From NCBI GenBank assembly GCA_947253945.1, contig CAMYAY010000003.1, positions 22,664 to 86,663 of the forward strand: a stretch of DNA of 64,000 nucleotides, given 5' to 3'. The position numbers were made by a program, and so were the translations under genes. The DNA is from an uncultured Candidatus Saccharibacteria bacterium (lineage in GTDB: Bacteria; Patescibacteriota; Saccharimonadia; Saccharimonadales; Saccharimonadaceae). Of this stretch, positions 839 through 50,943 are shown piece after piece (within the stretch, counting starts at the first letter, position 1; each line of letters starts with the position of its first letter). The notes beneath the pieces are model-generated. The model was not told the DNA's origin, did no database searches, and was given only the letters and a program-made list of their open reading frames with translations.

Positions 839-978
839 TGGCTGACTACAGAATTGGGCGATTTAGCGTGATTATTGCCACGGCATCGTGCTTGTGCTAT
901 ACTAATTGAGTAAGAAAATTGTGCGAGAATTAGCTACGAGAGCTAGCTAATAACCAGTTGACGAGAAGGAGGGTTTTA

Positions 979-5935: not shown

Positions 5936-6631
5936 TTAAAATAGCTTGATTTTATTGACTGGCCAGAGGCGAACACCAACCGGGCCAACGATGTTTTCAA
6001 ATGGGATGGTGCCGAGGCTTGGCCGGCCGCCGCCATTGCGGCTATCGGTGGAGTAGTTACCGTAACGGTGGTCGCCATCGACAAAGATTTCGCCTTGTGG
6101 TACGGTGATGTCGGTACCTTCGCCGGCAACGCACGGGTTGACCTCTTTATCGTTCGGTGCCAAATTCTTGAAAGTCGGATACGGGTCGAAGCCCTCAGGG
6201 TGCTCTTGATTGTGAACATAGAGGTGACAATCCTTTACCACCATGCGCTCGCCCGGTAGACCGGTGACGCGTTTCACGATATATTCTGGCTGACCGGTGC
6301 TGGTCATGGCAGTGCTCTTAAAGACGATGATGTCGCCGCGCTTCGGCACGTATGGCTTGCCTTGCAGGCGCGCAAAGGTGACGGGCAGGCGGTTAACTAA
6401 CACGCGGTCGCTGCCGTTTTGGCCTTCGAGAGTCGGCTCCATACTCGGACCCACGACGTCGAAACTCTGAAAAATAAAGGTATTAATGGCCCAGGCGCCG
6501 ACGATAACGGCGACAACAAAACCAAAAATGCGCGTAAAATCGTGCCAAGCATTTTTGGCTGAGGCGCGGTCCATCGGGTGTGGCTCTTCGACTGGCTGCG
6601 GCTTTAATGGTTCATCTGCATTAATTTTCAC
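5936..6631 (-). CDS. lepB: Signal peptidase I (S26)
   Basis: N-terminal TM segment, then GPSMEPTL (catalytic Ser box), RGDIIVF, VKRVTGLPGE, and GEIFVDGDHRYGNYSTDSR (box E). Confidence 0.8.
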   Translation of the reverse strand: MKINADEPLKPQPVEEPHPMDRASAKNAWHDFTRIFGFVVAVIVGAWAINTFIFQSFDVVGPSMEPTLEGQNGSDRVLVNRLPVTFARLQGKPYVPKRGDIIVFKSTAMTSTGQPEYIVKRVTGLPGERMVVKDCHLYVHNQEHPEGFDPYPTFKNLAPNDKEVNPCVAGEGTDITVPQGEIFVDGDHRYGNYSTDSRNGGGRPSLGTIPFENIVGPVGVRLWPVNKIKLF

Positions 6632-6701
6632 TCTATTTATTGTAGCGCAACTATAAGCATTTTGTCCAGAACCCGCGCGATATGTTATAATGTAATTATC
6701 T

Positions 6702-7556
6702 ATGGTGGATTTTATACATTCGGCGCATCACCACGGCTGGCTCGCGCTGGCGACACATGTGATTGCCAACGTGGCACTCGGCTTTTTGCTGGTGCTACTA
6801 GTGTACTTTTTTAAGACGCCGTGGCTCGCCATTGGCTTGTTGCTGATTTCGAAGTGGCGCGTGCTGGCGGTGCGGCCGCGTTACTGGTGGGCAAATATTT
6901 TGAGCTCGCTGCCGGACTTGGTGGTCGGGCTGAGCGTGATTATGTTGTCAGCCTATGTGGGCGACACGTACGAGAACCTGATTCGTAACGGTTTGCCGCC
7001 GACGATGGGCACGATGTTTTGGAGTTTTAATGTCAACGCACTTGAGGTGCAGCTGGGTATTGCGACCTTGTACGCCATTTGGCTGACGTGGATTAAGCCG
7101 TTGTCGAGTGAGCGCGCGGTGCTGTTTCAGGCGGGCGTGTGTGAATTGTTCGGGCTGATGGTGATCTATACGCTGTCGAAGGAGACGCTCTGGCTGGCGC
7201 TAGTGCTGACCTTCGTGGTGGCGTTTAGCGCGGCGCGGCAAGCGTTGGGGCAGTACGACGAAAAGTCGCGGTCGCTGCTGGCTTCAGTTTGGGGCGTCTT
7301 GGTGACTATTCTTGGCTATGCCTGCTGGCACTGGAACGTGATGTATCCGGTGATTTCGCTGCTGATTTTATTGCCGCAGATTGTGATTTTTGTGGCGATG
7401 ATTTCATTTGTCACTATCAAGGTGTACAAGGCGTGGGCAGACGACCGCCACGTGACATGGGAAGAGCTCGGCGCACCGGTGGTGTTCGCGCTGGCAATGA
7501 CGGTGGTGCTACTCATCTTCTTTAGCCGCTTGTTCGAGCTGCCAATACAGCCATAA
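6702..7556 (+). CDS. Polytopic integral membrane protein of unknown function
   Basis: About eight hydrophobic segments. I recognised no catalytic motif. Confidence 0.45.
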   Translation: MVDFIHSAHHHGWLALATHVIANVALGFLLVLLVYFFKTPWLAIGLLLISKWRVLAVRPRYWWANILSSLPDLVVGLSVIMLSAYVGDTYENLIRNGLPPTMGTMFWSFNVNALEVQLGIATLYAIWLTWIKPLSSERAVLFQAGVCELFGLMVIYTLSKETLWLALVLTFVVAFSAARQALGQYDEKSRSLLASVWGVLVTILGYACWHWNVMYPVISLLILLPQIVIFVAMISFVTIKVYKAWADDRHVTWEELGAPVVFALAMTVVLLIFFSRLFELPIQP

Positions 7557-11518: not shown

Positions 11519-11546
11519 TTGACGTAAGCTCGCGGGGGGGTACAAT
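11519..11546 (+). promoter_or_regulatory. Sigma70-like promoter TTGACG-N16-TACAAT upstream of the 11608 gene, whose spacer contains a G7 homopolymer
   Basis: ttgacg taagctcgcggggggg tacaat, with the G run at about 11534-11540. The spacer is 16 nt, so one more G would give the optimal 17. Confidence 0.45.
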
Positions 11547-11607: not shown

Positions 11608-13269
11608 ATGAGTAAACGCAAATACTTGAACGCTATATCGGTTGGCGTGATGGCTTTTGGTACGTTGGCGCTGGGCGTGGCATTTGTCTTGCCGGACGCT
11701 TTGGTGACTAACGCTGCGAGTGACAGTGACATTCAGAAGGAGTTGGATAGAATTGTCAAGCAGGGTGATGCGGCTTATCCTAAGTATGTGCAATACAAAA
11801 AAGTAGCTGATGAAGCGAAGGCAAAGCTAGACAAGGCTGCTGCTGATGCAGTTGCGGCTGATAAGGCGGCAGCTGATAGTAATACCATGTCTACTATAGC
11901 GTGGTTTCGACAAAATTACGTCAAGGCCTTGGATGAGGCCGAGAGCTTGCGCGCGCCAGGTTCGGCTACATATAAGGCGGCTGACGAGCTTGAGAAGTTT
12001 GACCAAGAGAAGGGCTACACCAAAAATCGCATTGAAGAAGCCTTCCTTAATAGTCTCATCAAGGCTGCCGACAAGCCAAAGCCAGCGGCAGACAAGGAGG
12101 CTCAGTTGATCGCACTAGCCGATGTCATGGACGGTATCGACGCCAAAGTCTTAACCGACAAGCAGGCAGGTGCTCTCAAGAATCACAGTGAGTACTTCCG
12201 CGGCAAGAAGGTGGTAGACGGCAGGCCGAGCAAGGTTCTTGAAGATATCAATGACGCTATTAAGCACGCTGCTGGTGCCGAGCGCAGAGCAGAAGGTGAG
12301 GGTATGTCTAGCGATTCTAAAACCTCAGGCTGGGGCTACAGCCAGCCAGTCCTCAGTGTGTGTGGTGCGACGCGTTACGATGAGAAGGCTTGGGCCTACG
12401 CAACTTACAAAGGCTTTGGAAAAGAGGGAACTGCGCATGTCGCTAGGGTCAATCAGGACTTCGCGATGTTTATGCAAAATGTGGAAGACCGCTTCCATGC
12501 CGTGCTTGATGGTAAGTTAGACAAGGCTGCCCTCACTACTCAGCGTGACCAAGCTAGGCAAGCCTACGAGAAGGTAGCTGCAGAGTTTGCCCAGAAGGAA
12601 AAGGCGGCGCAAGATGCTTGTACCGCTGCTAAGGCAACGTTTGAAGCACCAACAAGGGTAACTGAGCAGTTTAGGAAGGCTAAGACAGAGGCTCCGAAGT
12701 TAGCTGCTAAGGCTAAGGCGGCGCATGCTGCAGTATTGCCGCTAGCAGTTGCGGAATGGGATGCTGCTACTAACTTGCGCCCGTATGCTGAGGAAGTTAG
12801 CTCGCTCAAGGAACAGCTAGCAAAACTAGCTGAGGGTAAGGGGCTTAACTTTGTTGCTAAGCAGATTCGTAGTAGCAAGAATTCAACCTTTGCTGCACTA
12901 GCAAATCTAGTACGCGAGGGTCTAAGGGCTGCTACTCCAACTCCGGCTCCAACCCCAGCTGATGATAGCGATGACCATCTATTGGATTACCCGCAGCTTC
13001 CAGATAATAACGACTATGACCTAAGTGATTACATGGGGCTAGGTAAGTACGAGGGCACTAATAAGGAGAATGGTTCAGAGAAGAACACTCCGAACAAGCC
13101 GGCCGAGAAGGGCGATAAGACCATTGAGGTTACCCCAGAGAGCAATAAGCAGCCTAACGCTGACCAGGACGCTACTAAGAATGCTCCTAAGGACACTCCT
13201 CAGGGGCAACAGCAGGTCAAGAAGGGTCACCATAAGTACGGTGCACCTAACACCGGTTACAAATTCTAG
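11608..13269 (+). CDS. Secreted Ala/Lys-rich surface protein
   Basis: GAAGGAG SD. Signal peptide MSKRKYLNAISVGVMAFGTLALGVAFVLP. Long Ala/Lys-rich helical repeats and a Pro/Thr-rich C-terminus. A terminator follows at about 13296-13330. Confidence 0.55.
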   Translation: MSKRKYLNAISVGVMAFGTLALGVAFVLPDALVTNAASDSDIQKELDRIVKQGDAAYPKYVQYKKVADEAKAKLDKAAADAVAADKAAADSNTMSTIAWFRQNYVKALDEAESLRAPGSATYKAADELEKFDQEKGYTKNRIEEAFLNSLIKAADKPKPAADKEAQLIALADVMDGIDAKVLTDKQAGALKNHSEYFRGKKVVDGRPSKVLEDINDAIKHAAGAERRAEGEGMSSDSKTSGWGYSQPVLSVCGATRYDEKAWAYATYKGFGKEGTAHVARVNQDFAMFMQNVEDRFHAVLDGKLDKAALTTQRDQARQAYEKVAAEFAQKEKAAQDACTAAKATFEAPTRVTEQFRKAKTEAPKLAAKAKAAHAAVLPLAVAEWDAATNLRPYAEEVSSLKEQLAKLAEGKGLNFVAKQIRSSKNSTFAALANLVREGLRAATPTPAPTPADDSDDHLLDYPQLPDNNDYDLSDYMGLGKYEGTNKENGSEKNTPNKPAEKGDKTIEVTPESNKQPNADQDATKNAPKDTPQGQQQVKKGHHKYGAPNTGYKF

Positions 13270-14319: not shown

Positions 14320-14328
14320 GGGGGGGGG
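14320..14328 (+). repeat. Poly-G tract (G9 as read) in the 5' leader of family member B. Candidate slipped-strand phase-variation switch, currently OFF.
   Basis: ATG at 14293 has a GGAGGA SD, but the reading MNILRLNSCGGG hits TAG straight after the tract. With G8 it reads through into the 14420 ORF frame. Confidence 0.6.
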
Positions 14329-14419: not shown

Positions 14420-15730
14420 TTGTCCATAGCAGGTTTGGCAGGGGTATTTTTGCCATTGCCAGCAATGGCTGATGATTCAATCGATATTTCCGTTGACCCA
14501 GATGTTAGTTTGATTAAGCACGGTAATCTATATAAGACTACCGTTGGTATAACTGTTGGTGCAGAAGAGCCATATGGATTTAATATCTCCATGCAGGCTG
14601 CCGACTCTAGTTTGTCTAATAGCATAGACAAGAGCCATAAAATAACGTCTACACAAAGCGATACACCGGTTGAACTAGGGGCCAATCAGTGGGGGTACGC
14701 ATTAGATAACAATGCGGGTAAATTTAGCAAAATTCCTAGTAGCTCAGAGAGTGTGGCTAATATAGTGGATGTTACTAAAGATAATTTGTCCGGGTGTAAA
14801 AGTGTAAAATTCTGCACCAAGCGGGTTACTTATGCTGCCAATATTGATGCAGCTAAGTTGTCAGCTGGTAATTATAGTACCAGTATTACTTATACGGCCA
14901 CAGCAAAGGCGGCCCCTGCGCCAGTTCCAACTCCGCCAGCACCTGAGCCGTATGTGCCGCCGGCACCAAAAAGTAATGGCTGTCGTCAGGGCAGTTCTAA
15001 CTGTTCTATTCATATACCTAGGCAAGGTTACGATGCTAGCTCTAGCTACGTCTATGATAATTACTATGGCTGTTCATCTTTAGGTGGAGACTATGGTGTT
15101 GAAAGAGCATGCAAAGACCATCGTAGATCTTATGATAACAATATGTTGTCTTTGGATTCGCTTTTGCCGGTAAAACGAGAAGGTGGTGAATGGGTGTCGG
15201 TTCCGTCTTCTAATGATGATGACTATAATTATGACGGTACCAGTGGCAATAAATGGACATATATTGCTGTTATAGATAATGATGATAAACGTAGGCTGTA
15301 TTTCCAGAAAAAAACAGTGGTTGATTTAAAATATGTTACCGCAATTTATACATATGTACCACGCTATAAGATGGAAGATGGCAAAGTGGTGTTTTGTAAA
15401 CAAGCGGATTTCGCTAGTTGTGAGGGCCGACACGATTTTTATGGGGTGTTTAGTGATGCAACTGTAACGAATTATACGGATGGGTTTTGGGTTGATCTTA
15501 AGAGTGTGATGGGATGTAGCTATATGATGCCGAGCACTACGATGTATTCCTTTAACCATAACACTGTATATGATGATCATCTTCTGAATAGCTATGTTTT
15601 TGTAGAAAGGGATTATGGGTCATTTAAAGAGTATGGCGCTAATTACTATAGTGATTATAGGAATACTGATAGCCCTATTGAAACTACAGCAAAAGATCTT
15701 GCCAAAGCTATTGGTTCGCCATGCTATTAG
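14420..15730 (+). CDS. Secreted surface-protein family member B (N-terminal ANQWGY module, Cys/Tyr/Asp-rich C-terminus). Phase-OFF; the ON form would start at 14293.
   Basis: The ORF-track start is a TTG without an SD. The upstream frame with G8 gives MNILRLNSCGGGRFLSPLLQITKSRGKIAGAAKWNLYYCLAFLSIAGLAGVFLPLPAMA, an extended signal peptide. The N-domain motifs YGFNISMQA, ANQWGYAL and AGNYSTSITYTATAKAAPAP are present. Confidence 0.6.
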   Translation: MSIAGLAGVFLPLPAMADDSIDISVDPDVSLIKHGNLYKTTVGITVGAEEPYGFNISMQAADSSLSNSIDKSHKITSTQSDTPVELGANQWGYALDNNAGKFSKIPSSSESVANIVDVTKDNLSGCKSVKFCTKRVTYAANIDAAKLSAGNYSTSITYTATAKAAPAPVPTPPAPEPYVPPAPKSNGCRQGSSNCSIHIPRQGYDASSSYVYDNYYGCSSLGGDYGVERACKDHRRSYDNNMLSLDSLLPVKREGGEWVSVPSSNDDDYNYDGTSGNKWTYIAVIDNDDKRRLYFQKKTVVDLKYVTAIYTYVPRYKMEDGKVVFCKQADFASCEGRHDFYGVFSDATVTNYTDGFWVDLKSVMGCSYMMPSTTMYSFNHNTVYDDHLLNSYVFVERDYGSFKEYGANYYSDYRNTDSPIETTAKDLAKAIGSPCY

Positions 15731-17493: not shown

Positions 17494-18303
17494 CTAAGCA
17501 TAATGGATGTATCTTGGCTTACTATCAGCTCTAATTAATGTTTTGTAGAAGCCGAAAGTGCACAGTGTTATTAGAGAACACACGCATTCTGCCATGTATA
17601 GATACATAATAGTCTCTGCGTAGTAGATACTGTCATCAGAAAACATCAAATAGAGTATTATGTTTTGACACAACACCACTATGATTGGCCATGCCATATA
17701 CGACATGCCATTGCCCGCGTCACGTATGCGGCGTGTGCAGAGCGCAAGCCAACATACACTGAAGTAGAGCGTTAAAGCGCATAGTATCACTGGCGACCCA
17801 ATAAATAGTCTAAACACGATGGCGTAAGCTACATCAATCAAGATACTGCCAACCCACCAAGTGAGTCGGGTAGAGCAATCGTAAAAATTCAAGAACTGCG
17901 CAAATGCTTCGCCAAGCATATTTTTTAGATTATACTGTGGTTTTTCGGTTAATATAGCACCGGCGGAAGTTTTTGGCTCAGTTGGGGTACTAGTATTCGG
18001 TTGTTCTGGCATCTCTGCCGTTGGCGCCATTGGTGGCGTTTGCGGTTGATCTGCATTGGTAGGTAGCTGCTGCTGTTGAGGCCCCGGCTGTGTCGAGTTG
18101 GCGCTTGGCGGTGCCGGTGGCTGACTTGGCATAGTAGTGCCGGTGTTAGCCGTTTGATGTGGCGGTACCGGTGGCGTAAGACGCGACATTGTCGGATTGG
18201 TCGGCGGTGCCGGCGGCTGGTTCGGTTGAACCGGTGGTTTCGGCGGCATATTTTGCTGTGTTGGCGGCGCCGGTGGCATACCTTGAAAATTGTCATTAGA
18301 CAT
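17494..18303 (-). CDS. Pro-rich N-terminus with a C-terminal DUF805-like membrane domain
   Basis: PPAPP-rich low-complexity region of about 110 aa, then TM helices with RRIRDAGNG (DUF805 has RRLHDxGxSG). Confidence 0.45.
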   Translation of the reverse strand: MSNDNFQGMPPAPPTQQNMPPKPPVQPNQPPAPPTNPTMSRLTPPVPPHQTANTGTTMPSQPPAPPSANSTQPGPQQQQLPTNADQPQTPPMAPTAEMPEQPNTSTPTEPKTSAGAILTEKPQYNLKNMLGEAFAQFLNFYDCSTRLTWWVGSILIDVAYAIVFRLFIGSPVILCALTLYFSVCWLALCTRRIRDAGNGMSYMAWPIIVVLCQNIILYLMFSDDSIYYAETIMYLYMAECVCSLITLCTFGFYKTLIRADSKPRYIHYA

Positions 18304-18430
18304 AATGTTAACTCCTAGCTAGAAGGAACATATCGGCATTTGCTGATAATGCTTTAATTGTACAATATTGCAGTGCTATTGTCAATAAGAAAGCCCCACC
18401 GAAGTGGGGCAATGCTAGTCGTTGGTCAGA

Positions 18431-19003
18431 TTAACAATCCCAATTAAATACCATGTAACGTGGTTCGTTATCTGACCGGCTTGGCTTAAATGCCGCAATG
18501 GCAAGTGGTGCAACGAGAGCGCAAGTGTTCGCAATGGCGATAACTTGGCTCAGTAGTGGGCACGGCGTGATTAATAGTACATCCATAAAATAGACTACGA
18601 TAATCGCGTGCAATGCGGTGACGCTACTAGTGGCGCCGGCGTCGCGGAGGCGGCGGGTGGTGAGCGCAATGAGGCAAATCAACAGATAAATGGTTACCGT
18701 AAAGGCAGCCATCACGATGATGCTGAGCGCCATCGACGCAATTGTGTCGATGAGCCCGAGGCGGGCAAAGCACATGTGTCTGGCTGAAATTAAGGTGGCG
18801 AGCGGAATGGTGCCCGTCACGGCAATGGCGATGAGGCCAAACCAGAATTCAAAGCGGCTTGCGCCGAGGCTAGCGTCGTGGCGAATGCAGAAGGCTTGGC
18901 TAACTAAGTTGCCAAAGGTGTGCACTGGGCGACGGCTTAAACGGATAAATCCGGCTATAGTGCGTTCGACCGGCTGGTCAGCGTGGTTAAATTGGTTGTT
19001 CAT
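18431..19003 (-). CDS. DUF805-like membrane protein
   Basis: TM helices around TTRRLRDAGATSS. Paralogous to the C-termini of the 17494 and 20128 genes. Confidence 0.45.
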   Translation of the reverse strand: MNNQFNHADQPVERTIAGFIRLSRRPVHTFGNLVSQAFCIRHDASLGASRFEFWFGLIAIAVTGTIPLATLISARHMCFARLGLIDTIASMALSIIVMAAFTVTIYLLICLIALTTRRLRDAGATSSVTALHAIIVVYFMDVLLITPCPLLSQVIAIANTCALVAPLAIAAFKPSRSDNEPRYMVFNWDC

Positions 19004-19132
19004 GAGATCAACTCCTAGTTCGTAAGGTACATTGTGGAATTACCACTAACGCTTTGAGTGTAACATATTTTAGCTAATATGTCAATAAGCCTACAGAGGT
19101 GGAGCTGAAGTTATTGAGTGTCGGCGTTTGGC

Positions 19133-20071
19133 TTATTTGCTATGAGGGAAGAGCGTCGAGAGGCTGATGCCGTTGTTTTGCGCTGGGTTATAGGTTGTGG
19201 CCGGTTGGATGGTTTGTGTTGGATCTGGGATCGGGGTCGGAGCTGGAGCTGGCTGTGCCTGAGGTGTTGGTTCTGGGGCTGGGACTGGCTGCTCTAACTG
19301 TGGTGCTGGTGCAGCGGGTTGCTCTTGTGGTGTCGTTGGCACCGTTGATATTGGCGACATGACGGCCTGCGGCTGGTAAGTTGGAGTTGGCATTGGGGTC
19401 GGAGCTGGAGATTCGGTGTCTATTACTGGTGCAGCAAGTGGCGCTTGTGGTGCAGGGGCTTCAACTGGCGGTAATGGATTAGTATCTGGCGCTGACTGTT
19501 CTAACGGTGGCATTGGCGCTGAGAGCTGTGCTTGTGGCTGCTGTTGGAGGCGTGGGTCGGCCTGCGGCTGGTAAGTCGGCTGAGGTTGTGGTTCCGGAAT
19601 TTGTTGCGGCGCTGGAGCTGCGGTCGGTGCTTCGGCGGGCTGCGCCTGGGTATAAGTTGGCTGGCTGTACTGAGCTACTGGCTGTGCTGGCGTGGGAGCC
19701 GCCTGTGGTGCTGGTTGTGCTGGCTGTTCCTGAGGTGCAGGCGTAGCTTGCTGTGCTGGTTGAGGCTGCACTAGTGGTTTAATGCTAGCCGACATTTGCC
19801 GCGGCATGCCCACTGGTACGCTTGGCTGCATACGACGGAGTGGCTCGGAGAGCAGATCTGGGTTGCTATAGGCATCGAACTCGTCGACGTTGTCGATGTT
19901 GCTAAAGCTACTTGAGCTGGTGGCAACTTGAGTTGAGGCTTGTGCCTTGGTCGGCATAGTGGTGTCCTGCGGTTCGGTCTTGGTGATGGGTTTGCCGATG
20001 GGCGAGAGCTGCACGCCTTGGAAGGGGCTGCTGGCTGGTTGATTGTTTTGATTTTGATTTTCGTTTTGCAT
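19133..20071 (-). CDS. Low-complexity Pro/Gln/Ala/Thr-rich protein
   Basis: MQNENQNQNNQ... with the remainder being PQPA repeats and no TM segment. Probably related to the N-terminal regions of the flanking DUF805 genes. Confidence 0.35.
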   Translation of the reverse strand: MQNENQNQNNQPASSPFQGVQLSPIGKPITKTEPQDTTMPTKAQASTQVATSSSSFSNIDNVDEFDAYSNPDLLSEPLRRMQPSVPVGMPRQMSASIKPLVQPQPAQQATPAPQEQPAQPAPQAAPTPAQPVAQYSQPTYTQAQPAEAPTAAPAPQQIPEPQPQPTYQPQADPRLQQQPQAQLSAPMPPLEQSAPDTNPLPPVEAPAPQAPLAAPVIDTESPAPTPMPTPTYQPQAVMSPISTVPTTPQEQPAAPAPQLEQPVPAPEPTPQAQPAPAPTPIPDPTQTIQPATTYNPAQNNGISLSTLFPHSK

Positions 20072-20127
20072 GGTTATCCTTACTTACCTATATCTTAACG
20101 CAACTTAGCGCTGAGCGCAAATTGAGA

Positions 20128-21315
20128 CTACTTTTTATTAAAAAATGAGAGGTAGCGCGGGACGTTGTCTTGCCATTGAATGCTTGGCGCAAAGTTGGCG
20201 ATAAAGCAAACAACCGGTGCAGCGGGAGTAAAGACTAAGAAGCGCAGCCAAGTCGGTTTGCCGGCATCGCAGAGGCGGCGACGCATGAGCATAAAGAGTG
20301 ACACTAGTGGGTAAATGACGGTGAACGGAAATACAAGGAGGTCGAGGAGGCCCATGCCGGATATTGCTAGGATGATACAGAGAATTATTAGAAGTATTAT
20401 CACTACTACCTGAACGGTTGCGGCGAGGATGTAGGTAAGGCGGCTGGTGCAATAACCACTGGTGGAGACGGGAATTAGGGCTTCACAAAGGATGTTTTTG
20501 AATGAATTTGGCGGCGTGGCGACAGCGGTAATGTAGTGCGGTAGCCGAGACTGAGGGACTTGGCTGGCGCCGAATTGCTGGCTTGGCAGAGTCGGTCGGT
20601 CGGCGATGATGTTGCCGGCTTGCGTGGTGAGCTGGTTGAAGGCGCTGGGGTTGGCACTACTAGTGTTGTTGGAGTTGCTGGCGGAAGTCTTGTGGGTCAG
20701 GACTGACGGGTCGATGGCAGCAAAGCCGGCGCCAGTGTAGCCACTGGTGGTTGAAGTGGTTGGCTGCGTTGAAGTGGTCGGCTGAAAAGAGGTAGCTAGC
20801 GGCGCGGCTGGTTGAAAAGAAGCGGCTGCTGGTGCAGCTGGCTGTGCCGTAAGTGGGTTAAATGGTGAAGTTGCCGCAGTTGACTGGGCAGAGGTGACTG
20901 CTGCCGCAGTCGAGGCGGCTGAGCTAATCGGGTTAAACCGAGCGGCTTGGTTAAGTTGCGTTGTCGCTACGTTAGTAGCGGTTGACATGACCGGGTTAGC
21001 TTGGGCGGTTCGATCTGGCTGAGCTGGCTGGGCAATGTTGAAGCTTTGGCCTTGAGGTGTGGTCGGCTGAAACTGTGTTGGCTGAGGCTGATCCGGTTGG
21101 AAGACACGTTGTTGTGTTAGCGGGGACTGTGCAGGCTGAGCTGTGATTGGGTTAAACTGAGATACTGGCATGCTTGGCCGAGGCGTGGTTAGATTAAACG
21201 ATAAAGCCGATGTAGTTGGCTGTTGTGGCTGGGCGGAAGTAGCTGCTGGTGTAGTTGGCTGGGCGGCGGTTAGTGGTTGATTTTGAAATGGATTAAAATT
21301 TGAATTGTTTTGCAT
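20128..21315 (-). CDS. Q/P/T/A-rich N-terminus with a C-terminal DUF805-like membrane domain
   Basis: About 280 aa of low complexity, then TM helices with MRRRLCDAGKPTW. Confidence 0.45.
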   Translation of the reverse strand: MQNNSNFNPFQNQPLTAAQPTTPAATSAQPQQPTTSALSFNLTTPRPSMPVSQFNPITAQPAQSPLTQQRVFQPDQPQPTQFQPTTPQGQSFNIAQPAQPDRTAQANPVMSTATNVATTQLNQAARFNPISSAASTAAAVTSAQSTAATSPFNPLTAQPAAPAAASFQPAAPLATSFQPTTSTQPTTSTTSGYTGAGFAAIDPSVLTHKTSASNSNNTSSANPSAFNQLTTQAGNIIADRPTLPSQQFGASQVPQSRLPHYITAVATPPNSFKNILCEALIPVSTSGYCTSRLTYILAATVQVVVIILLIILCIILAISGMGLLDLLVFPFTVIYPLVSLFMLMRRRLCDAGKPTWLRFLVFTPAAPVVCFIANFAPSIQWQDNVPRYLSFFNKK

Positions 21316-21498
21316 GTTTGTCCTTTGATTAATTACTCATATCTTACCGCGCTATCATAAATCGCGCAAGACTGAAGGCGGCGACAGAGGTGGCAGGGTG
21401 GTGCGCGAAAAATTTGGCATTTTATTTTGTTAGTGCTATAATTCAGGTATCTACCTTGGAGGCAGAAAAAGAAAAAATAAAGGAGGAGAATAAACAAT

Positions 21499-22467
21499 AT
21501 GAATAAATTACGGCAAACAGCTGTGGGGGGGGGTAAATTTTTAAGACTTTTGCCTCACGTTACTAAGTGTAGGGATGAAGTGGCTACATCAGCGCCTGCG
21601 ACGTTAAGCTTCAATCATCTCGTTTTTGCGGCGCCCACTACATTATTTAGCTTGTTAGCGTTGGCTATCGTGCCGTTGGTTTTTACTGCGCCAGCCCATG
21701 CAGACTATATTAATGTTGTCCTTGATGCACCCAATGCTACATTGAATGGTGTAGGGAAGTATTTTAGCTATAGGAATGTTATTACAGTAAACAATAGTAA
21801 TAGTTATGGTTTTACGCTTGGTATGTATGCCAATAATCCCAATCTAGTCAATAACAGAGATTCAAATTATACAATTAGTAGTGTTTCGGGGCGTGGAAGA
21901 TATCTTGGCTCTAATCAATGGGGGTACAGCATGACGGGTGATGACGGTACATTTAATGAGATACCAAGGTCATTGTATAATGCTGTAACATTGGCAGATG
22001 TAACGAACAAAGCAAAGGGCGTATGTAGTAGTGTTGCGTACTGCCATATTCCAGTTACTTTCGGCGCTAATATTGAATCTAATAAAAGCGCCTCGGGCTA
22101 TTACTCTACGACGTTAATTTATACTGTTACCAGTAAACCAAAACCGTATACCCCACCAACGCCACCGGCGCCAGATCCAGAGCCATATCATCCGTCTACA
22201 CCACCAATTGGTGGCGGGACGGGCTATCATGATTGGTGGAGTGCATGTCGCACTAGATATCCTGGCTATGATTTAGTAACTGAGGACAAGATTAGTTATT
22301 GCGCGCATCATGAAGGCGACATGGACGGCTATGCCCCGGATTGGAATTCGATATGTACTAAGAGATATCCTGGTACTTATAGCCGGCAACTTAATGCAAG
22401 GTCATATTGTATAGCTCACGAAGGCAACATGAATGACTATCCGGATGATCCTAATAATAATATATGA
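21499..22467 (+). CDS. Secreted surface-protein family member C (N-module plus two Cys-rich C..RYPG..YC.HEGDM.GY repeats). Poly-G leader in frame (ON).
   Basis: AAGGAGGAG SD. MNKLRQTAVGGGKFLRLLPHVTKCRDEV...FSLLALAIVPLVFTAPAHA is an extended signal peptide. The G9 tract at 21525-21533 encodes VGGG. Confidence 0.65.
   Translation: MNKLRQTAVGGGKFLRLLPHVTKCRDEVATSAPATLSFNHLVFAAPTTLFSLLALAIVPLVFTAPAHADYINVVLDAPNATLNGVGKYFSYRNVITVNNSNSYGFTLGMYANNPNLVNNRDSNYTISSVSGRGRYLGSNQWGYSMTGDDGTFNEIPRSLYNAVTLADVTNKAKGVCSSVAYCHIPVTFGANIESNKSASGYYSTTLIYTVTSKPKPYTPPTPPAPDPEPYHPSTPPIGGGTGYHDWWSACRTRYPGYDLVTEDKISYCAHHEGDMDGYAPDWNSICTKRYPGTYSRQLNARSYCIAHEGNMNDYPDDPNNNI
21525..21533 (+). repeat. Poly-G tract (G9) inside the leader codons of member C, ON configuration
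   Basis: GCT GTG GGG GGG GGT AAA is in frame. Confidence 0.6.
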
Positions 22468-22732
22468 CACGTATAGTTGCTATTTTTTGTAATGATAAAA
22501 TATTGCCAAGAAGCTTGATTAACTGTGTATCATGAATGATGACACGAGATAATTATTGTCCATTGGTCATTGCTAGTTGGCTTTATATTATTGTATGTAG
22601 AAATTCATTGTTCCGCTAATTATTAAATTAATAAAAAGTTTGGCATTTTATTTTGCTAGTGTTATAATTCAGATATCTACCTTGGAGGCAGAAGAAAGAA
22701 AAAATAATGAAAAACAAAGAGAAATAAACAGC

Positions 22733-23695
22733 ATGAGAAAGCATTTGACATTGGCGCGCAGTGATAGTCAATCAACTGGCGCAAATAGCAACTCCATTTG
22801 TATGGTATCGATTGCTTTGTCTTTGTTGTTTGTTGCGTCGTTGGCTTTTGCCACACCGGCTTATGCGGACAGTATTTCAATAAGCCTCGACTCTACCGCC
22901 GTTGCTCTACAGCGCAGTGGGGATTTGTATAAGCACACTAGTAGTATCCATGTACACAACAATAATACTTACGGCTTTACGCTTAGCATGAGTGCCAGTC
23001 AGCCAAATTTGGTAAACAGCAAGGACTCTACTTATAAGATAAACTCCGTTTTTGGCACCAACCAGCACCTTGCCGCTAACCAGTGGGGTTATGGCATGGG
23101 TAAGACGCCCGCTACATTTAGTTCAGTTTCTTCTGCGTCGCTGGCGGATATTACCAGCAACAATAAAGGCAGCTGCAGCGCTGTTGATGACTGTACACTC
23201 TATCTCACCTTTGGTGCTAACATTGATTCGAAGCGCCTGCCAGTAGGTAATTACAGTACTACATTGACTTATACCGCAGTTAGTAAGCCAGCTCCGTATG
23301 TACCATCAACGCCAACACCAACGCCGAGCCCACCTTCGGGTGGTGGATCGTCGGGTCATAGTTCTTTGTATTATTTATGCGAAAGGAGATATCCCGGTAA
23401 TAGTGATATAGATAGGTGGGAATATTGTTTCGATCATCATGGCGACATGAGTGGATTTGATGACTACTATTTAAATAAGACATGTAGTGAAAGATACTCC
23501 GGCGATGATGATAAGATATCATACTGTAAGGATCATGATGGCGACGTGAGTGGCTATGTACCTGATTGGAATAAGATATGTAGTAGAAGATACCCTGACT
23601 ACTATCTTGATTCTCTTAGTAAGAGGGCATATTGTTACCATCACCATGGCGATATGAGTGGCTATGTTGACTATTATCATCCCGGCGGCAACTAA
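22733..23695 (+). CDS. Secreted surface-protein family member D (N-module plus four Cys-rich C..RYP..YC.HHGDMSGY repeats). No poly-G.
   Basis: Start set at MRKHLTLARSD; the ORF track extends to 22640. Signal ends ATPAYA. ANQWGYGM and VGNYSTTLTYTAVSKPAPYVPSTPTP are present. The C-terminal repeats are CERRYPGN..YCFDHHGDMSGF, CSERYSGDDDKISYCKDHDGDVSGY, CSRRYPDYY...YCYHHHGDMSGY. Confidence 0.6.
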   Translation: MRKHLTLARSDSQSTGANSNSICMVSIALSLLFVASLAFATPAYADSISISLDSTAVALQRSGDLYKHTSSIHVHNNNTYGFTLSMSASQPNLVNSKDSTYKINSVFGTNQHLAANQWGYGMGKTPATFSSVSSASLADITSNNKGSCSAVDDCTLYLTFGANIDSKRLPVGNYSTTLTYTAVSKPAPYVPSTPTPTPSPPSGGGSSGHSSLYYLCERRYPGNSDIDRWEYCFDHHGDMSGFDDYYLNKTCSERYSGDDDKISYCKDHDGDVSGYVPDWNKICSRRYPDYYLDSLSKRAYCYHHHGDMSGYVDYYHPGGN

Positions 23696-26689: not shown

Positions 26690-26699
26690 GGGGGGGGGG
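26690..26699 (+). repeat. Poly-G tract (G10 as read) in the 5' leader of family member E. Candidate phase-variation switch, currently OFF.
   Basis: ATG at 26663 has a GGAGGA SD and reads MNILRLNSCGGGVDF then TAA. With G8 or G11 it reads MNILRLNSCGGGRFLRYFPHIVKREGKIATPAP... straight into the 26854 ORF. Confidence 0.6.
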
Positions 26700-26853: not shown

Positions 26854-28824
26854 GTGGCACTCGGTCTGTTTGTTTTAGCTTTTGCGCCATTAATCTTAGT
26901 TACGCCAGCCCACGCCACCGATGATAACACTGTCAGCATCGCGGTTGACCAGAACGCTACACTAAAGCCAGCTGGCACGCTCTATAAAGCCACCACGAAC
27001 GTTACCGTTAAGACCGGCAAACCCTACGGCTTCAATCTCACCATGCAAGCCGATACGGCTGACCTTGTAAACAGTAAGGACCCAACCCATAAAATCTCCG
27101 CCACTCCAAGCACCACCCCGGTTGCCTTAAACGCTAACCAGTGGGGTTATGCTCTTAATAAGTCTGCCTCTACTTTCAGCGCCGTCCCAGCTGGCACCCA
27201 AGCCACGCCAGCCGTCATTGTTGATACATCAGTTAAAGGCAAGCAAGCTGGTTGTAATTGTAAAGACCATTGCGATACCACTGTTACTTTTGCAGCCAAC
27301 GTCGACCCAGCTAAATTAGCCAGCGGTAGCTATAGCACCACCATTATCTACACGGCTACTGCCAAACCAGCTCCAAAACCACCGGTAGTTGAGCCAACGG
27401 TTTGTAAGTCCGGCGACCCAAAGAACGATTGCCAAGTTGACCTCGACCCAAACATGATCCCAGTCAAATATACTGGCAGTATCTATAACGCAGAGTGGAC
27501 CAGTGTAGCCGATCCAGAAGATAGTTCCAACCAAGGAAATTGGTATGACTACGATAACAAGCAATGGGCTAATGCTATCACTGTAAAGCCATGGGCTCTC
27601 AGTAAATATCAGGGTCAGACCAGGGTAGTAGACCAATCAGATATTCTTGGCTTTTGGGTCTACATACCACGTTATGCTTATGAAGTCATGCGCCGTGATG
27701 CTACAGACAAGCCGGTGCCAGCGCAGAATTTCCTAATTCATTTTGAAAAGAAGACCGACCCGAAGCGCTATCCAGCCGAATCAAAATGTGCTGGCCGTAA
27801 TATGGATTACCGTACCACCTGTAGACTCAATCGCGATTATATCAAGGGCCAGCCAAGCACCCAGGGCACCTGGGCCACCCACCCAGCCTTTACCTTCGGC
27901 GCTAAAGAACTCAATGGCATCTGGTTTGCTAAGTTTGAGACGACGGGTAGTATTGACCATCCAACTATTTTGCCTAATCAATCCCATATAGGGTATGAGC
28001 CTATCGGAACATATTACACGGTAGCTAAATCTCTTGGGGTTAACGACCCACAAAATATTGGTGGCAACAGTATATCCACTACCCAAAATAGCCACAATCT
28101 TGCTAAGTTTAGCTCTCACATGGTAAATAATAGCGACTGGGGTGCAGCTACTTACTTATCTGCTAGTAAGTATGGTTCTGGCTATAATAAGGTTCAAATG
28201 AATACTAATGGACAGGGGCATAGTACTGGCTACAATGATATGTCGTCATATGGTATTACTGGATGTGGTCCGCGTTCTAGTGGCGATGCTAGTAGCTATG
28301 GAGGTAATAGCAGCTATCAGTATAGGCCAAACTATACCGACGAAGTTGGTGGTGTGCTAGGCACCCAAAGTGCTTGCTATTCTGGTGATATACAGCGTGC
28401 TTACAATGGCACCCTTGGCCAACTCGCTAGTACCGCCAACAACCCAACAGGTATTTATGATATGTCTGGTGGGGCTTCGGAATATACTGCATCTAGTTAT
28501 ACTAGTGATCTAAATAATTCTAGTACTATTAATTTCAGACAATCGCCTGCTCGTCCACCGTATGCTAACATATATAATTTCGATACCCTAAATAGATGTA
28601 CTTTTTCTACCTGTGGTGGTCAAGCTCTACACGAAACAAATAGTGATAGCACCGTAGCTCGATGGAATGGTGGCTGGGTAAAATTTGTGGGGCATTCTGC
28701 TCCGTGGTTTGAACGTGGTGGCTACTATGGTGACTCGCATATAGGACTGTTTCGTGTTAGTATTTCGAATGGTGGTCCCATTGGTATGGTCGCGTTCCGC
28801 GTCGCGCTCGCGCCTACGGTGTAA
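26854..28824 (+). CDS. Secreted surface-protein family member E (N-module plus FGE-sulfatase-like C-domain). Phase-OFF; the ON form would start at 26663.
   Basis: The ORF-track start is a GTG without an SD. About 85-90% identical to member G (40276) over the N-module. Motifs ANQWGYALN, CQVDLDPNMIPVKY, YWVYIPRYAYEVMRRD, GTWATHPAFTFGAKELNGIWFAKFETTG, GIYDMSGGASEY, CGGQALHE and FRVALAP are present. Confidence 0.65.
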   Translation: MALGLFVLAFAPLILVTPAHATDDNTVSIAVDQNATLKPAGTLYKATTNVTVKTGKPYGFNLTMQADTADLVNSKDPTHKISATPSTTPVALNANQWGYALNKSASTFSAVPAGTQATPAVIVDTSVKGKQAGCNCKDHCDTTVTFAANVDPAKLASGSYSTTIIYTATAKPAPKPPVVEPTVCKSGDPKNDCQVDLDPNMIPVKYTGSIYNAEWTSVADPEDSSNQGNWYDYDNKQWANAITVKPWALSKYQGQTRVVDQSDILGFWVYIPRYAYEVMRRDATDKPVPAQNFLIHFEKKTDPKRYPAESKCAGRNMDYRTTCRLNRDYIKGQPSTQGTWATHPAFTFGAKELNGIWFAKFETTGSIDHPTILPNQSHIGYEPIGTYYTVAKSLGVNDPQNIGGNSISTTQNSHNLAKFSSHMVNNSDWGAATYLSASKYGSGYNKVQMNTNGQGHSTGYNDMSSYGITGCGPRSSGDASSYGGNSSYQYRPNYTDEVGGVLGTQSACYSGDIQRAYNGTLGQLASTANNPTGIYDMSGGASEYTASSYTSDLNNSSTINFRQSPARPPYANIYNFDTLNRCTFSTCGGQALHETNSDSTVARWNGGWVKFVGHSAPWFERGGYYGDSHIGLFRVSISNGGPIGMVAFRVALAPTV

Positions 28825-28953: not shown

Positions 28954-31080
28954 ATGGTAGAGGTAAGGTCTAAATTGCGGCGGATTTATTTGGTGAGTGG
29001 CATGGCATTGATTGTGCTCGCCACCCTTCTGGTGTTGCATCCGGCGCCGGTGCAGGCGCGGCTGGCCAGCCAGAGCGCGACGCCGACTAATGACGGCATA
29101 GAAGTTACGTCTGTTGACGAACTGAAGCTGCAGCGGGGTGAGCACCGCTTTTACAAGGCTACCAATCACATTTTTGTCAAGACAGGCTGGAAGTACGGCT
29201 TCAGTGTGACCATGTTGGCGTTGACGCCGGATTTATTGCACAATCCGAACCCTATTTCTGACTGTGGTAGCGTTGTGATCGCAGCCCCTAAGAGCTATGA
29301 GCCGGTGGATTTGCAGCCGGGGCAGTGGGGCTTTAGCCTCGACCAAAATGCTACCAAGTTCAGGCATATTCCGAGTATGTGGCAGGCTCGGCCGCACGAC
29401 GACCCGCTACTGATAGCCGAAACGTCTCCAAACAAGACCGGCAAGTGTGCCAGCGCCCATGAGTGTGATGTGCCGGTGACCTTTGCGGCTAATTTAGACT
29501 CCAATGACATCGCTGCTGGCAAATACGAGACTAATGTTTATTACACGGTGACCGCTAAGCCGCGCCCGCCGCATGTGATTGAGGAGCCGAACATGAGCAC
29601 TAATTTTTGCCAGTCCGGCAACGCAGCGAACAGCTGTAAGGTTGATATCGACGCCAACATGATTCCAGTGCGCTACGACACCGAATATGCCAAGTGGGTG
29701 AGTGTAGCCAAGACCGAAGACGCCGCGCATCAGGGTAGTTGGTATGATTATAATAAGAAGCAGTGGGCGAACGCCGTGACGGTGAAGAAATCGGCATTAA
29801 GTAAGTACCAAGGCCAAGCTAAACCTGTCGACCCAGCTGATATTCTCGGTTACTGGGTGTATGTGCCGCGCTATGCTTATGAGGTGATGCGGCGTGACTT
29901 TAGCAACCACCTTCCAGTGAAGCCGCAGAATTTTGCCATTCACTTTGAAAAAGCGACTGACCCAAAGCGCACTCCGGCGCCATGCGAGCGTAGTTCGTAC
30001 TTCATGCCGGATTACCGGAAGGATTGTAAACTCGACCGCAGCTACATTGCTGGCAAGCCGAGCAAGAACGGCACTTGGGCGACTCATCCAGCGTTTAGTT
30101 TTGGCAAGAAGGAGCTGAACGGCATTTGGTTTGCGAAGTTTGAGACCACTGGTACGAAGACTCAGCCAACGGTGCTGCCGAACCAGCGTCGTATGACTGG
30201 CGCTGACCTTGGTGGCGACGCTGCGGGCTTGTTCTATACGCTGGCTAAGACTGTGGGCACTGTTGACCTTGGTAACGTTGGCGGTACGCGCATCAAGGAC
30301 GCGCCAAGTAACGCGCACGACCTCGCCAAGTTTAGCTCACGCATGATAAACAATAAGGACTGGGGCGCCTTAGCTTACCTCAGCGCCAGCGAGTTCGGCA
30401 CGGGCTACAACGGCTTACAGTCAAACAACCAGACCGACGACCAAATGGACGCCGACCAGAATTTCAGCAAGGGTGTAACGGGCTGTGGCGCCGGCACCGG
30501 CGAAGACTACTCCGACACTGGCAAGTTGGGCACGGAGCAGGCTTGTAACGCAAACCACCCAGAGTACGCCTATAATGGCACCGTCGGACAGCACGCCAGC
30601 ACCACTGGTAACGTGACAGGCGTGTACGACATGGCGGGCTATGGTGGCTACGTGGCGGCGAAGTATGTTGTTGATCCAAATACGCTAGTGCCGAGCTCCA
30701 TACCAGAGTTTGCACGACCGAAGTATACGTGGTATCACAAGAGCGACCCGACTGGCATTGGCGCGCCGCTCAACTCGCCGTACCTCAATGCTTATAACTT
30801 CTCGTCGTTTGACAAGTGTACTTATGAGCTTTGTGGTGGGCAGGCTAGCTATGAAGTTCACAACATCTACGTCCCGTCCGGTCCAAATCAGTGGCTGGGT
30901 CAAAAGTATGACGATTACAAGATGGAGGTTGAGGATACTTGGGTTTACCGTGGCGGCAGTAGCGACCTTGAAGGCGACATTGCGACAGGTGACCGCGGTA
31001 TTTACACCTTCCATCTTGCGAACGGTGGTTCAACTGGCCAAGACGGCTTACATATTGTCCTCGGCGCATTTAAGCAGTAA
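28954..31080 (+). CDS. Secreted surface-protein family member F (divergent N-module plus FGE-like C-domain). No poly-G.
   Basis: GGAGGTGG SD. Signal ...LHPAPVQA. Motifs QWGFSL, CKVDIDANMIPVRY, YWVYVPRYAYEVMRRD, GTWATHPAFSFGKKELNGIWFAKFETTG, GVYDMAGYGGY and CGGQASYE are present. Confidence 0.7.
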   Translation: MVEVRSKLRRIYLVSGMALIVLATLLVLHPAPVQARLASQSATPTNDGIEVTSVDELKLQRGEHRFYKATNHIFVKTGWKYGFSVTMLALTPDLLHNPNPISDCGSVVIAAPKSYEPVDLQPGQWGFSLDQNATKFRHIPSMWQARPHDDPLLIAETSPNKTGKCASAHECDVPVTFAANLDSNDIAAGKYETNVYYTVTAKPRPPHVIEEPNMSTNFCQSGNAANSCKVDIDANMIPVRYDTEYAKWVSVAKTEDAAHQGSWYDYNKKQWANAVTVKKSALSKYQGQAKPVDPADILGYWVYVPRYAYEVMRRDFSNHLPVKPQNFAIHFEKATDPKRTPAPCERSSYFMPDYRKDCKLDRSYIAGKPSKNGTWATHPAFSFGKKELNGIWFAKFETTGTKTQPTVLPNQRRMTGADLGGDAAGLFYTLAKTVGTVDLGNVGGTRIKDAPSNAHDLAKFSSRMINNKDWGALAYLSASEFGTGYNGLQSNNQTDDQMDADQNFSKGVTGCGAGTGEDYSDTGKLGTEQACNANHPEYAYNGTVGQHASTTGNVTGVYDMAGYGGYVAAKYVVDPNTLVPSSIPEFARPKYTWYHKSDPTGIGAPLNSPYLNAYNFSSFDKCTYELCGGQASYEVHNIYVPSGPNQWLGQKYDDYKMEVEDTWVYRGGSSDLEGDIATGDRGIYTFHLANGGSTGQDGLHIVLGAFKQ

Positions 31081-40066: not shown

Positions 40067-40275
40067 GGAAGGTGAGGCTATAACTAAATCCCCGCGTTGG
40101 CGGGGATTTTTGGTGACAGAAAGTAGCTTTGATGGCTTAGCTTTTGCTCTAGCAGCGGGGCAGCTTGTTTAAAGTTTGGCGTTTTATCCCGCTTGTGGTA
40201 TAATGCAGGTATCTAGCCGGTGGTGGCAGAGATAAACCTAAACAGGACAATAACCAAAAATGGAGGACAAACAAC

Positions 40276-50690: not shown

Positions 50691-50943
50691 TACAGGTAGT
50701 CGCTTGAGCCCGCCAGCTTGGCGGGCTTTTTTGATTGGCTTTTGTCGGCAAATTAGTCTAAGCCGCGAGCTAAATCGGTTTGAGCTGGGTCGCCGCGTCC
50801 GCCGGCGGGCTTTACGCTAAAGGCTTGTTGCCGCATTGTGCTTGTGTTATACTAGAGGTATACGCGCGAGAGACGTAGTTAAATAACTATCCACACTACT
50901 AGTGACCGATAGTTAATTGCGAGAGTTAATAACAAGGAGGGTA

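Follow-up and report, generated by a model that had tools for sequence, protein, structure and literature searches.

As summarized in PMC1941758, whose title and abstract also speak of lineage-specific adaptation of the family and of high antibody titres against several of its members, the Helicobacter cysteine-rich proteins are secreted and consist of tandem alpha/alpha repeats of 34-36 amino acids (aa), each of them disulfide-bridged. Here we analyze a Cys-containing repeat of related build, found in two adjacent plus-strand genes, referred to as members C and D, of a 64,000-nucleotide (nt) stretch of an uncultured Candidatus Saccharibacteria bacterium (contig CAMYAY010000003.1, positions 22,664 to 86,663, of metagenomic origin with the ENA entry ERZ28569506 scaffold_16; this whole stretch is the window, and all positions given below are counted in it unless another genome is named). 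Judged by analogy, the Helicobacter proteins (HcpA/B/C, with Sel1-like repeats, SLR) are the closest functional counterpart, the likeness lying in secretion by a host-associated bacterium and in tandem alpha/alpha hairpin units, which here measure 32 or 36 aa and are predicted with two helices each (AlphaFold2, AF2; predicted local distance difference test, pLDDT, 93). Membership, however, fails on sequence and on structure. When C and D, five homologues with the repeat and 70 three-unit windows were scanned against Pfam, no Sel1 or TPR model appeared (E<=0.1-1; for the three-unit windows, among the best 25 of 38 families), and Foldseek against the PDB retrieved no HcpB, HcpC, SLR or TPR structure. 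The Cys spacing is also different, with 16-20 residues between a Cys in the middle of helix 1 and another late in helix 2, the units have a long G-D-M-S-G-Y loop that is conserved, and the array is fused to a pilin-like N-terminal domain (N-domain) through a Pro-rich linker.

Small helix-loop-helix domains with inter-helix Cys-Cys links, in which the core is largely the staple itself, are also known, among them the plant alpha-hairpinins, the CHCH twin-Cx9C domains and the Cs-alpha/alpha toxins. These are single domains with two disulfides per hairpin at a fixed CX3C or CX9C spacing, whereas the units described here carry one Cys per helix, form tandem arrays of up to nine and gave no sequence or Foldseek match to them.

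On balance we consider it probable that the repeat is a new, lineage-restricted, exported helical-hairpin module with one disulfide per unit, and that the array of units sits distally on a surface protein as its exposed and variable head, resembling an adhesin or antigen. Its interest lies chiefly in belonging to a large family of surface proteins in TM7-H1-like Saccharibacteria that is apparently phase-variable. Saccharibacteria are ultrasmall, and the cultivated ones live attached to other bacteria; to our knowledge, little beyond type IV pili has been established about how they recognize and attach to their hosts.

The repeat unit and its distribution

The six-frame translation of all 64 kb was scanned with two loose regular expressions, C-x(1-3)-R?-Y-[PS]-[GD] and YC-x(1-2)-H-x-G-[DN]-[MV]. 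The YC..H.G(D/N)(M/V) core occurs five times, always within the open reading frames (ORFs) of C and D, and a hidden Markov model (HMM) of the unit recognizes the copies with per-unit E-values of 7e-14 to 1e-16, which confirms, well beyond what chance would give, the presence of the repeat in both genes proposed in a preliminary description of this DNA. Member C contains, as counted there, two units of 36 aa each (22234-22341, WWSACRTRYPGYDLVTEDKISYCAHHEGDMDGYAPD, and 22342-22449, WNSICTKRYPGTYSRQLNARSYCIAHEGNMNDYPDD). Member D had been credited with four copies and has three, of 34, 33 and 36 aa (23366-23467, LYYLCERRYPGNSDIDRWEYCFDHHGDMSGFDDY; 23468-23566, YLNKTCSERYSGDDDKISYCKDHDGDVSGYVPD; 23567-23674, WNKICSRRYPDYYLDSLSKRAYCYHHHGDMSGYVDY). 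The span previously assigned to the repeat, 22190-23695, was drawn too wide, as it also takes in the end of the C linker, the intergenic promoter and the whole N-domain of D, while the motif details given with it, i.e. RYP(G/D), YC.(H/D)H.GDM(S/D)GY and the PDWN.IC junction between units, are right. At the DNA level a 48-nt core is 65-77% identical among the five copies and Tandem Repeats Finder reports no tandem array, because the units are too diverged; the copies should therefore be regarded as old, diverged and kept by selection on the protein.

A homologue search with the D repeat region alone (118 aa) yielded no match, and homologues were retrieved with a query in which C and D were aligned together with the N-domain from a third paralogue. 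Iterated HMM searches over the 105 homologues found 198 units in 40 proteins, with one to nine units each, arranged head to tail. The unit consensus is W-x2-I-C-x2-R-Y-P-G-(4-9 x)-D-K-x-S-Y-C-x2-H-x-G-D-M-S-G-Y-x-P-D, and unit lengths fall into two classes, 32 aa and 36 aa. Exactly two Cys are present in 157 of the 159 distinct units. C22 is conserved in 100% and C5 in 98% of them, followed by Y9 (96%), G27 (95%), Y21 (94%), S30 and Y32 (91% each), H25 (88%), M29 (87%) and D28 (83%). In the three units apparently lacking C5 the Cys is shifted, not lost, and first, last, truncated and single units all retain both. Variation concentrates at positions 2, 3, 6, 7, 19, 23, 24 and 26 and in the inter-helix loop, and the first and last units of the arrays are of conserved, position-specific types.

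Nothing above threshold was obtained from Pfam and NCBIfam for C and D, or from Pfam for the homologues and the 70 three-unit windows, where Pfam listed sub-threshold noise such as EGF_TEN, zinc-finger motifs and TGase_elicitor. PDB sequence searches with two profiles gave nothing relevant, and Foldseek with the repeat model returned only two matches in the PDB (best E = 7, probability 0.08), neither of them SLR nor TPR, and no neighbor in BFVD. Hence, the earlier remark that the repeat was not recognized as a known domain agrees with Pfam, NCBIfam, PDB sequences, PDB folds and BFVD folds alike. The database search with a repeat HMM that had been suggested as a check did not reach a known family either: a profile of 84 units run with HMMER against 1.84 billion representative proteins matched nine of them at E<=1e-3, eight belonging to the same N-domain family, including a distant one-unit member, and the ninth being an unrelated repeat protein (E = 2e-4). 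Across 15 billion proteins the Cys repeat has no relatives outside its own family. None of the family members looked up is named in public sources. A pattern scan of the GTDB species genomes located the family in five Saccharibacteria genomes only, with several paralogues each, two or three of them repeat-bearing. These carriers are TM7-H1-like Saccharibacteria, and the named genome closest to the window is that of TM7-H1 (CP026537), a vaginal taxon associated with preterm birth (PMC6750801). Literature searches combining Saccharibacteria with cysteine-rich, repeat or phase variation found nothing on the family. Both the domain family and its fold appear to be new and lineage-restricted, while bacterial surface proteins with variable repeat modules are known in general.

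Two further assignments were considered and discarded. The P-G-x-D-x-D-K loop was not retained as an EF-hand or Ca loop, since it has only ~6 residues in 32-aa units, and no EF-hand, dockerin or Excalibur model is found in any Pfam table returned. An EGF-like (teneurin EGF) assignment was rejected with a score of 25.9 bits for PF25024 in protein P0030, against a cut-off of 65, and with two Cys per unit and an all-helical prediction as opposed to a six-Cys, beta-rich domain.

Predicted fold and the role of the cysteines

AF2 modelling of the three D units, based on a 70-row alignment of three-unit windows, gave a mean pLDDT of 93.4 and a predicted template modelling score (pTM) of 0.65, with six helices, two per unit. 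Helix 1 corresponds to W..IC..R and helix 2 to DK.SYC..H, each holding one Cys in the model, while H.GDMSGY.PD forms the loop leading into the next unit. A full-length run with a different, messier alignment produced identical helices with pLDDT of about 85-90. The structure prediction suggested in the preliminary description therefore resulted in a confident helical hairpin per unit, having no fold neighbor in the PDB. Mutual information computed on the unit alignment (effective number of sequences, Neff, ~92) supports, from sequence covariation and independently of AF2, the helical hairpin: the top pairs are i/i+4 in both helices, and the cross-helix pairs 6-20 and 2-23 imply an antiparallel register in which C5 would face approximately C22. 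Conserved positions 1, 4, 5, 8 and 9 and positions 17/18, 21, 22 and 25 lie on one face of each helix, with the variable ones on the opposite face.

In the mechanism we propose, the unit would be an extracellular antiparallel helix-loop-helix, with helix 1 built on W-x2-I-C-x2-R-Y and helix 2 on D-K-x-S-Y-C-x2-H, whose invariant Cys, located on the conserved buried helix faces, would pair as an intra-unit disulfide staple. The G-D-M-S-G-Y-x-P-D loop would run directly into the following unit, and two to nine units, joined head to tail without linkers, may pack as a compact helical array.

Concerning the Cys, either disulfides or metal binding had been thought plausible, in the form of stabilized knots. 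The two invariant Cys per unit keep both chemistries plausible; the knots do not fit the prediction, which is a simple helix-loop-helix per unit, neither knotted nor a beta-rich Cys domain. We infer, and hold to be rather probable, a single intra-unit disulfide, C5-C22, stapling each hairpin. Pointing to it are the presence of exactly two Cys per unit, one per helix and on buried faces, the retention of both in terminal, truncated and single units, the fitting register of the cross-helix covariation, the export of the protein through a signal peptide, an invariant C-x5-C pair in the N-domain, and the Cys counts of the mature family members, which are even in 81 and odd in 14 under a crude cleavage call. 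The competing idea that each unit is a small metal-binding module, for Zn or, via Cys/His/Met, for Cu, with C5, C22, H25 and D28 or M29 as ligands and the metal holding the helices together, seems unlikely to us. It draws on C5, C22, H25, D28 and M29 being the best-conserved side chains, on C22-x2-H25 setting two ligands one turn apart on helix 2, on the resemblance of C-x2-H-x3-M to the ligand loop of cupredoxins, on sub-threshold Pfam zinc-finger matches (CCHC_ZFPM2 in 14 of the 70 three-unit windows, FmdE treble clef in 6 of 70), and on the low-oxygen mucosal niches in which these organisms live. Nevertheless, 19 of 159 units have Tyr, Asn, Arg, Ser, Gly or a gap in place of H25, and an H25-less unit type, 'CIDYKGDMSGY', is itself well conserved and occurs in at least 8 proteins; 27 of the 159 units lack D28 and M29 is Val or Ile in about 9%, while Cys, unlike these three residues, is never lost. 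The replacement of H25 by Tyr, Asn or Arg in otherwise intact, conserved units leans against an obligatory metal site. Besides, all the Pfam zinc-finger matches are below the gathering score and mutually inconsistent, Cys-built structural Zn sites are uncommon outside the cell, where this exported protein would reside, and the predicted fold is helical, not that of a cupredoxin.

Formal membership in known metal-binding families was considered separately. A zinc-finger-like (treble clef, CCHC) membership was rejected given sub-gathering scores scattered over many unrelated models and H25 and D28 missing in 12% and 17% of the units, respectively, and a cupredoxin-type copper site given the helical prediction, the lack of a conserved upstream His and the above mentioned M29 replacements.

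The protein family and its variation

Members C and D share a common layout, consisting of a long Sec-type signal peptide ending in A-x-A, as read from sequence, a ~140-aa N-domain, a linker, the Cys units and a short tail. Member C (21499-22467, 322 aa) comprises the signal peptide (21499-21702, probably cleaved after APAHA), the beta-sandwich N-domain (21703-22140), a Pro-rich linker (22141-22233) and, after its two units, a short tail. In member D (22733-23695, 320 aa) the signal peptide (22733-22867, probably cleaved after TPAYA), the N-domain (22868-23290) and a Pro/Thr/Ser/Gly linker (23291-23365) precede the three units and the tail YHPGGN.

The N-domain is confidently predicted as a beta-sandwich (pLDDT about 95) and is matched by Foldseek to the class 5 chaperone-usher pilins CfaB of CFA/I, CooA of CS1 and CS17, with E = 1e-4 to 6e-4, probability 1.0 and a target-normalized template modelling score, TM(target), of 0.48-0.56. 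They share an Ig-like beta-sandwich and, as read from the sequence, a mature N-terminus with an alternating hydrophobic strand (DSISISLD). They differ in that the N-domain has about 12-18% identity to them and matches no Pfam pilin model, and in that a Pfam scan of 34 window ORFs, which are not every ORF of the window, revealed neither chaperone nor usher domains. Saccharibacteria are regarded as lacking an outer membrane. In the full-length AF2 run, residues 2-8 of the D precursor (RKHLTLA, 22736-22756), before the core of the signal peptide, form a beta-strand at moderate confidence, which may be the model filling the groove of the pilin-like sandwich in the manner of a donor strand, and could equally be an artefact.

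Eight N-domain paralogues are located in the window, all on the plus strand and starting at 958, 14293/14420, 21499, 22733, 26663/26854, 28954, 40276 and 50917/51309; besides C and D the ORFs are 958-3015, 14420-15730, 26854-28824, 28954-31080, 40276-42381 and 50917-53189. Together they make up about a fifth of the 64 kb, interspersed with housekeeping genes such as those for a class II tRNA synthetase, signal peptidase, RF1, PrmC, RpsB, Tsf, RecJ, Adk and Map. The C-terminal regions differ from one paralogue to the next, with Cys units in C and D alone, which bears out the earlier view of the repeat as one of several alternative C-termini on a common N-domain; accordingly, what stays constant in the family is the N-domain, and what is exchanged is the C-terminus. 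Weak matches to the FGE-sulfatase domain are found C-terminally in paralogue 26854-28824 and in one homologue elsewhere, while paralogues 958, 14420, 28954 and 40276 and both ORFs at 50917/51309 have no Pfam match at E<=0.01. Because of the weak FGE-sulfatase matches a diversity-generating retroelement was considered, and rejected: a window-wide repeat scan displayed paralogue-level repeats only and no template/variable pair, no search being aimed at a reverse transcriptase.

Variation within the arrays can be followed in a syntenic allele from another sample (L027), which has the same downstream genes as the window. From ~23557 on, covering the last D unit (98-100% nt identity), a phosphoribosyltransferase gene and RecJ, both sequences are 90-100% identical (mostly 95-100%), whereas upstream, inside gene D, identity drops to 45-57% over units 1-2 and is 73-88% over the N-domain, with the break at ~23540-23557, within unit 2 of D. 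Unit-number variants among full-length members (8 vs 9 and 7 vs 8 units), as well as length variants, are also present within clusters formed at 90% identity.

A second layer of variation concerns poly-G tracts. Member C and paralogues 14293, 26663 and 40276 have a common leader, MN(K/I)L... (MNKLRQTAVGGG...), and, 26-27 nt downstream of its ATG, a tract of G9 or G10, placed at 14320-14328 (G9), 21525-21533 (G9), 26690-26699 (G10) and 40302-40310 (G9). In C the tract spans codons 9-12 (VGGG) and is a candidate slipped-strand on/off switch: in silico, G9 gives the 322-aa protein and G8 or G10 a 14- or 12-aa peptide, and an allele of C (P0001) has GG in place of GGG. At the assembled lengths 21499 and 40276 are in frame, while 14293 and 26663 stop after 12-15 codons and need G8 or G11; overall, changes of one G in either direction switch in silico between full-length and 12-15-aa products. 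The 50917-53189 paralogue consists of overlapping ORFs 50917-51369 and 51309-53189 with an internal G7 tract at 51265-51271, in which one added G (G8) rejoins them into a 757-aa ORF, so it is either one more phase-variable gene, currently switched off, or a pseudogene with a frameshift. The leader with a G7-G12 tract precedes paralogues in all five related genomes (loci L003-L024), repeat-bearing ones included, and tract lengths range from G6 to G12 across paralogues, alleles and genomes.

As in contingency genes, a homopolymer of at least 7 within the 5' coding region sets the frame and its length differs between alleles. The arrangement is hence a candidate signature, at the sequence level, of slipped-strand phase variation of the whole surface-protein family. 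It resembles Neisseria Opa and the poly-G contingency genes of Campylobacter and Neisseria in being a large exported paralogue family with a frame-setting homopolymer in the leader codons, and differs in that member D has no tract. The general mechanism of phase variation via repeat tracts is treated in PMC2831843 and PMC8355987. No report of a phase-variable surface family of this leader-tract type in Saccharibacteria was found in the literature searched.

It should be noted that in the TM7-H1 genome (locus L008; CP026537, about 429-430 kb) one repeat-bearing paralogue with a G8 leader tract has its N-domain (5968-6639 of the locus) and four Cys units (6474-7007) in different frames, through a frameshift, as a pseudogene or by a PacBio indel error.

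Conserved core, variable helix faces and a variable-length inter-helix loop are the reason why the array is read as the exposed, ligand- or antigen-facing end of the protein. In the proposed arrangement it would lie at the C-terminal end, beyond the Sec signal peptide, the pilin-like beta-sandwich and a flexible Pro/Ser/Thr/Gly linker, and would act as the adhesin-like tip of a surface protein, diversified through the gain, loss and exchange of units by recombination, through allelic mosaicism, and, for several paralogues and member C, through poly-G on/off switching in the leader codons. Like the staple, the exposure at the surface, the role in binding and the switching itself are what we infer. 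Several observations weigh against this picture. The repeats could be wall-proximal instead of the exposed end; no C-terminal anchor, sorting signal or membrane segment is found in the C and D sequences, leaving cell attachment unaccounted for. The disulfide itself is deduced from a model and from sequence, a Pfam scan of 34 ORFs, which covered neither the other ORFs of the window nor the genome beyond it, shows no disulfide-forming enzyme, and among the best-conserved residues are typical ligands of metals (Cys, Cys, His, Asp, Met). As for switching, homopolymer lengths in metagenome or PacBio assemblies can be erroneous, and member D, besides having no poly-G tract, shows a weak Shine-Dalgarno sequence.

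The lack of any other anchor in the sequence suggests a different role for the repeats, namely the non-covalent attachment of the protein to the wall polymers of its own cell, in the way of choline-binding, GW, LysM or SH3b repeats, with the Pro-rich segment spanning the wall and the N-domain exposed. An N-domain followed by a Pro-rich spacer and C-terminal tandem repeats is the usual layout of non-covalently anchored Gram-positive proteins, the units have conserved aromatics (W1, Y9, Y21 and Y32), and one family member ends in a weakly SH3_3-like C-terminus. We nevertheless find such an anchor quite improbable: other paralogues hold at that place C-terminal regions of about 450 aa (with the weak FGE-sulfatase match) that are not anchor-like, near-identical strains differ most, and are most mosaic, in the repeat region, while anchors are usually conserved, unit number varies from 1 to 9, and it is the N-domain that constitutes the constant module of the family. 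Less probable still, to the point of being a poor candidate, is that the array is a mere rigid spacer or a stabilizing cap for an N-domain fibre, without a ligand of its own and with its variation reflecting neutral expansion and contraction of repeats. Linker-less, head-to-tail units with high-confidence local packing, a freely varying copy number and most conserved positions that look structural, belonging to the core or the loop, would suit it; the conserved, position-specific types of first and last units, the sharp recombination boundary in a near-identical strain with divergence well above that of the flanks, and the phase-variation signatures of the family, typical of exposed proteins under selection, do not.

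If the array is an adhesin head, as we favor, host or partner specificity, as well as antigenic variation, would gain a concrete candidate in this lineage, and the Cys repeat would also provide a new and compact scaffold; should it serve only as a structural spacer, it would still be a clean example of lineage-restricted domain invention. A more far-reaching scenario, which we put forward as speculative and improbable, is that TM7-H1-like Saccharibacteria give a large part of their ~0.7-Mb genome to one phase-variable family whose N-domain polymerizes donor-strand style into fibres without chaperone and usher, and whose interchangeable heads, the Cys-stapled array among them, are a programmable binding scaffold setting the bacterial host or the human mucosal ligand.

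Promoters and neighboring genes

Both genes have similar upstream regions. Member C is preceded by a near-consensus sigma-70-type promoter at 21414-21442 (TTGGCA-17-TATAAT with TG), inside a block at 21408-21484, and member D by a promoter at 22640-22668 (TTGGCA-17-TATAAT with TG), inside the conserved block 22634-22710. These 77-nt blocks, which span promoter and 5' untranslated region, are 87% identical between C and D, better conserved than the coding regions of the two genes, and contain a short inverted repeat, AGGTA..TACCT, close to where transcription probably starts. A copy 62% identical to the block (40170-40246) precedes the 40276 paralogue. The start of member D is the ATG at 22733, in agreement with the public gene call (320 aa), while the TTG at 22640, which the ORF finder took as start of D, belongs to the -35 hexamer in its promoter.

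Searching the whole window with Rfam identified only a tRNA. A G7 tract at 11534-11540, located ~68 nt upstream of the ATG of a 553-aa ORF (11608-13269) that has no Pfam match, may be a length-variable tract in a promoter or 5' region. Directly upstream of member C, and divergent from it, four tandem minus-strand genes (17494-21315) encode proteins with long Pro/Gln/Ala/Thr-rich low-complexity regions, three of which (17494-18303, 18431-19003 and 20128-21315) have a DUF805-type membrane domain as their C-terminal part, the match being weak in one of them.

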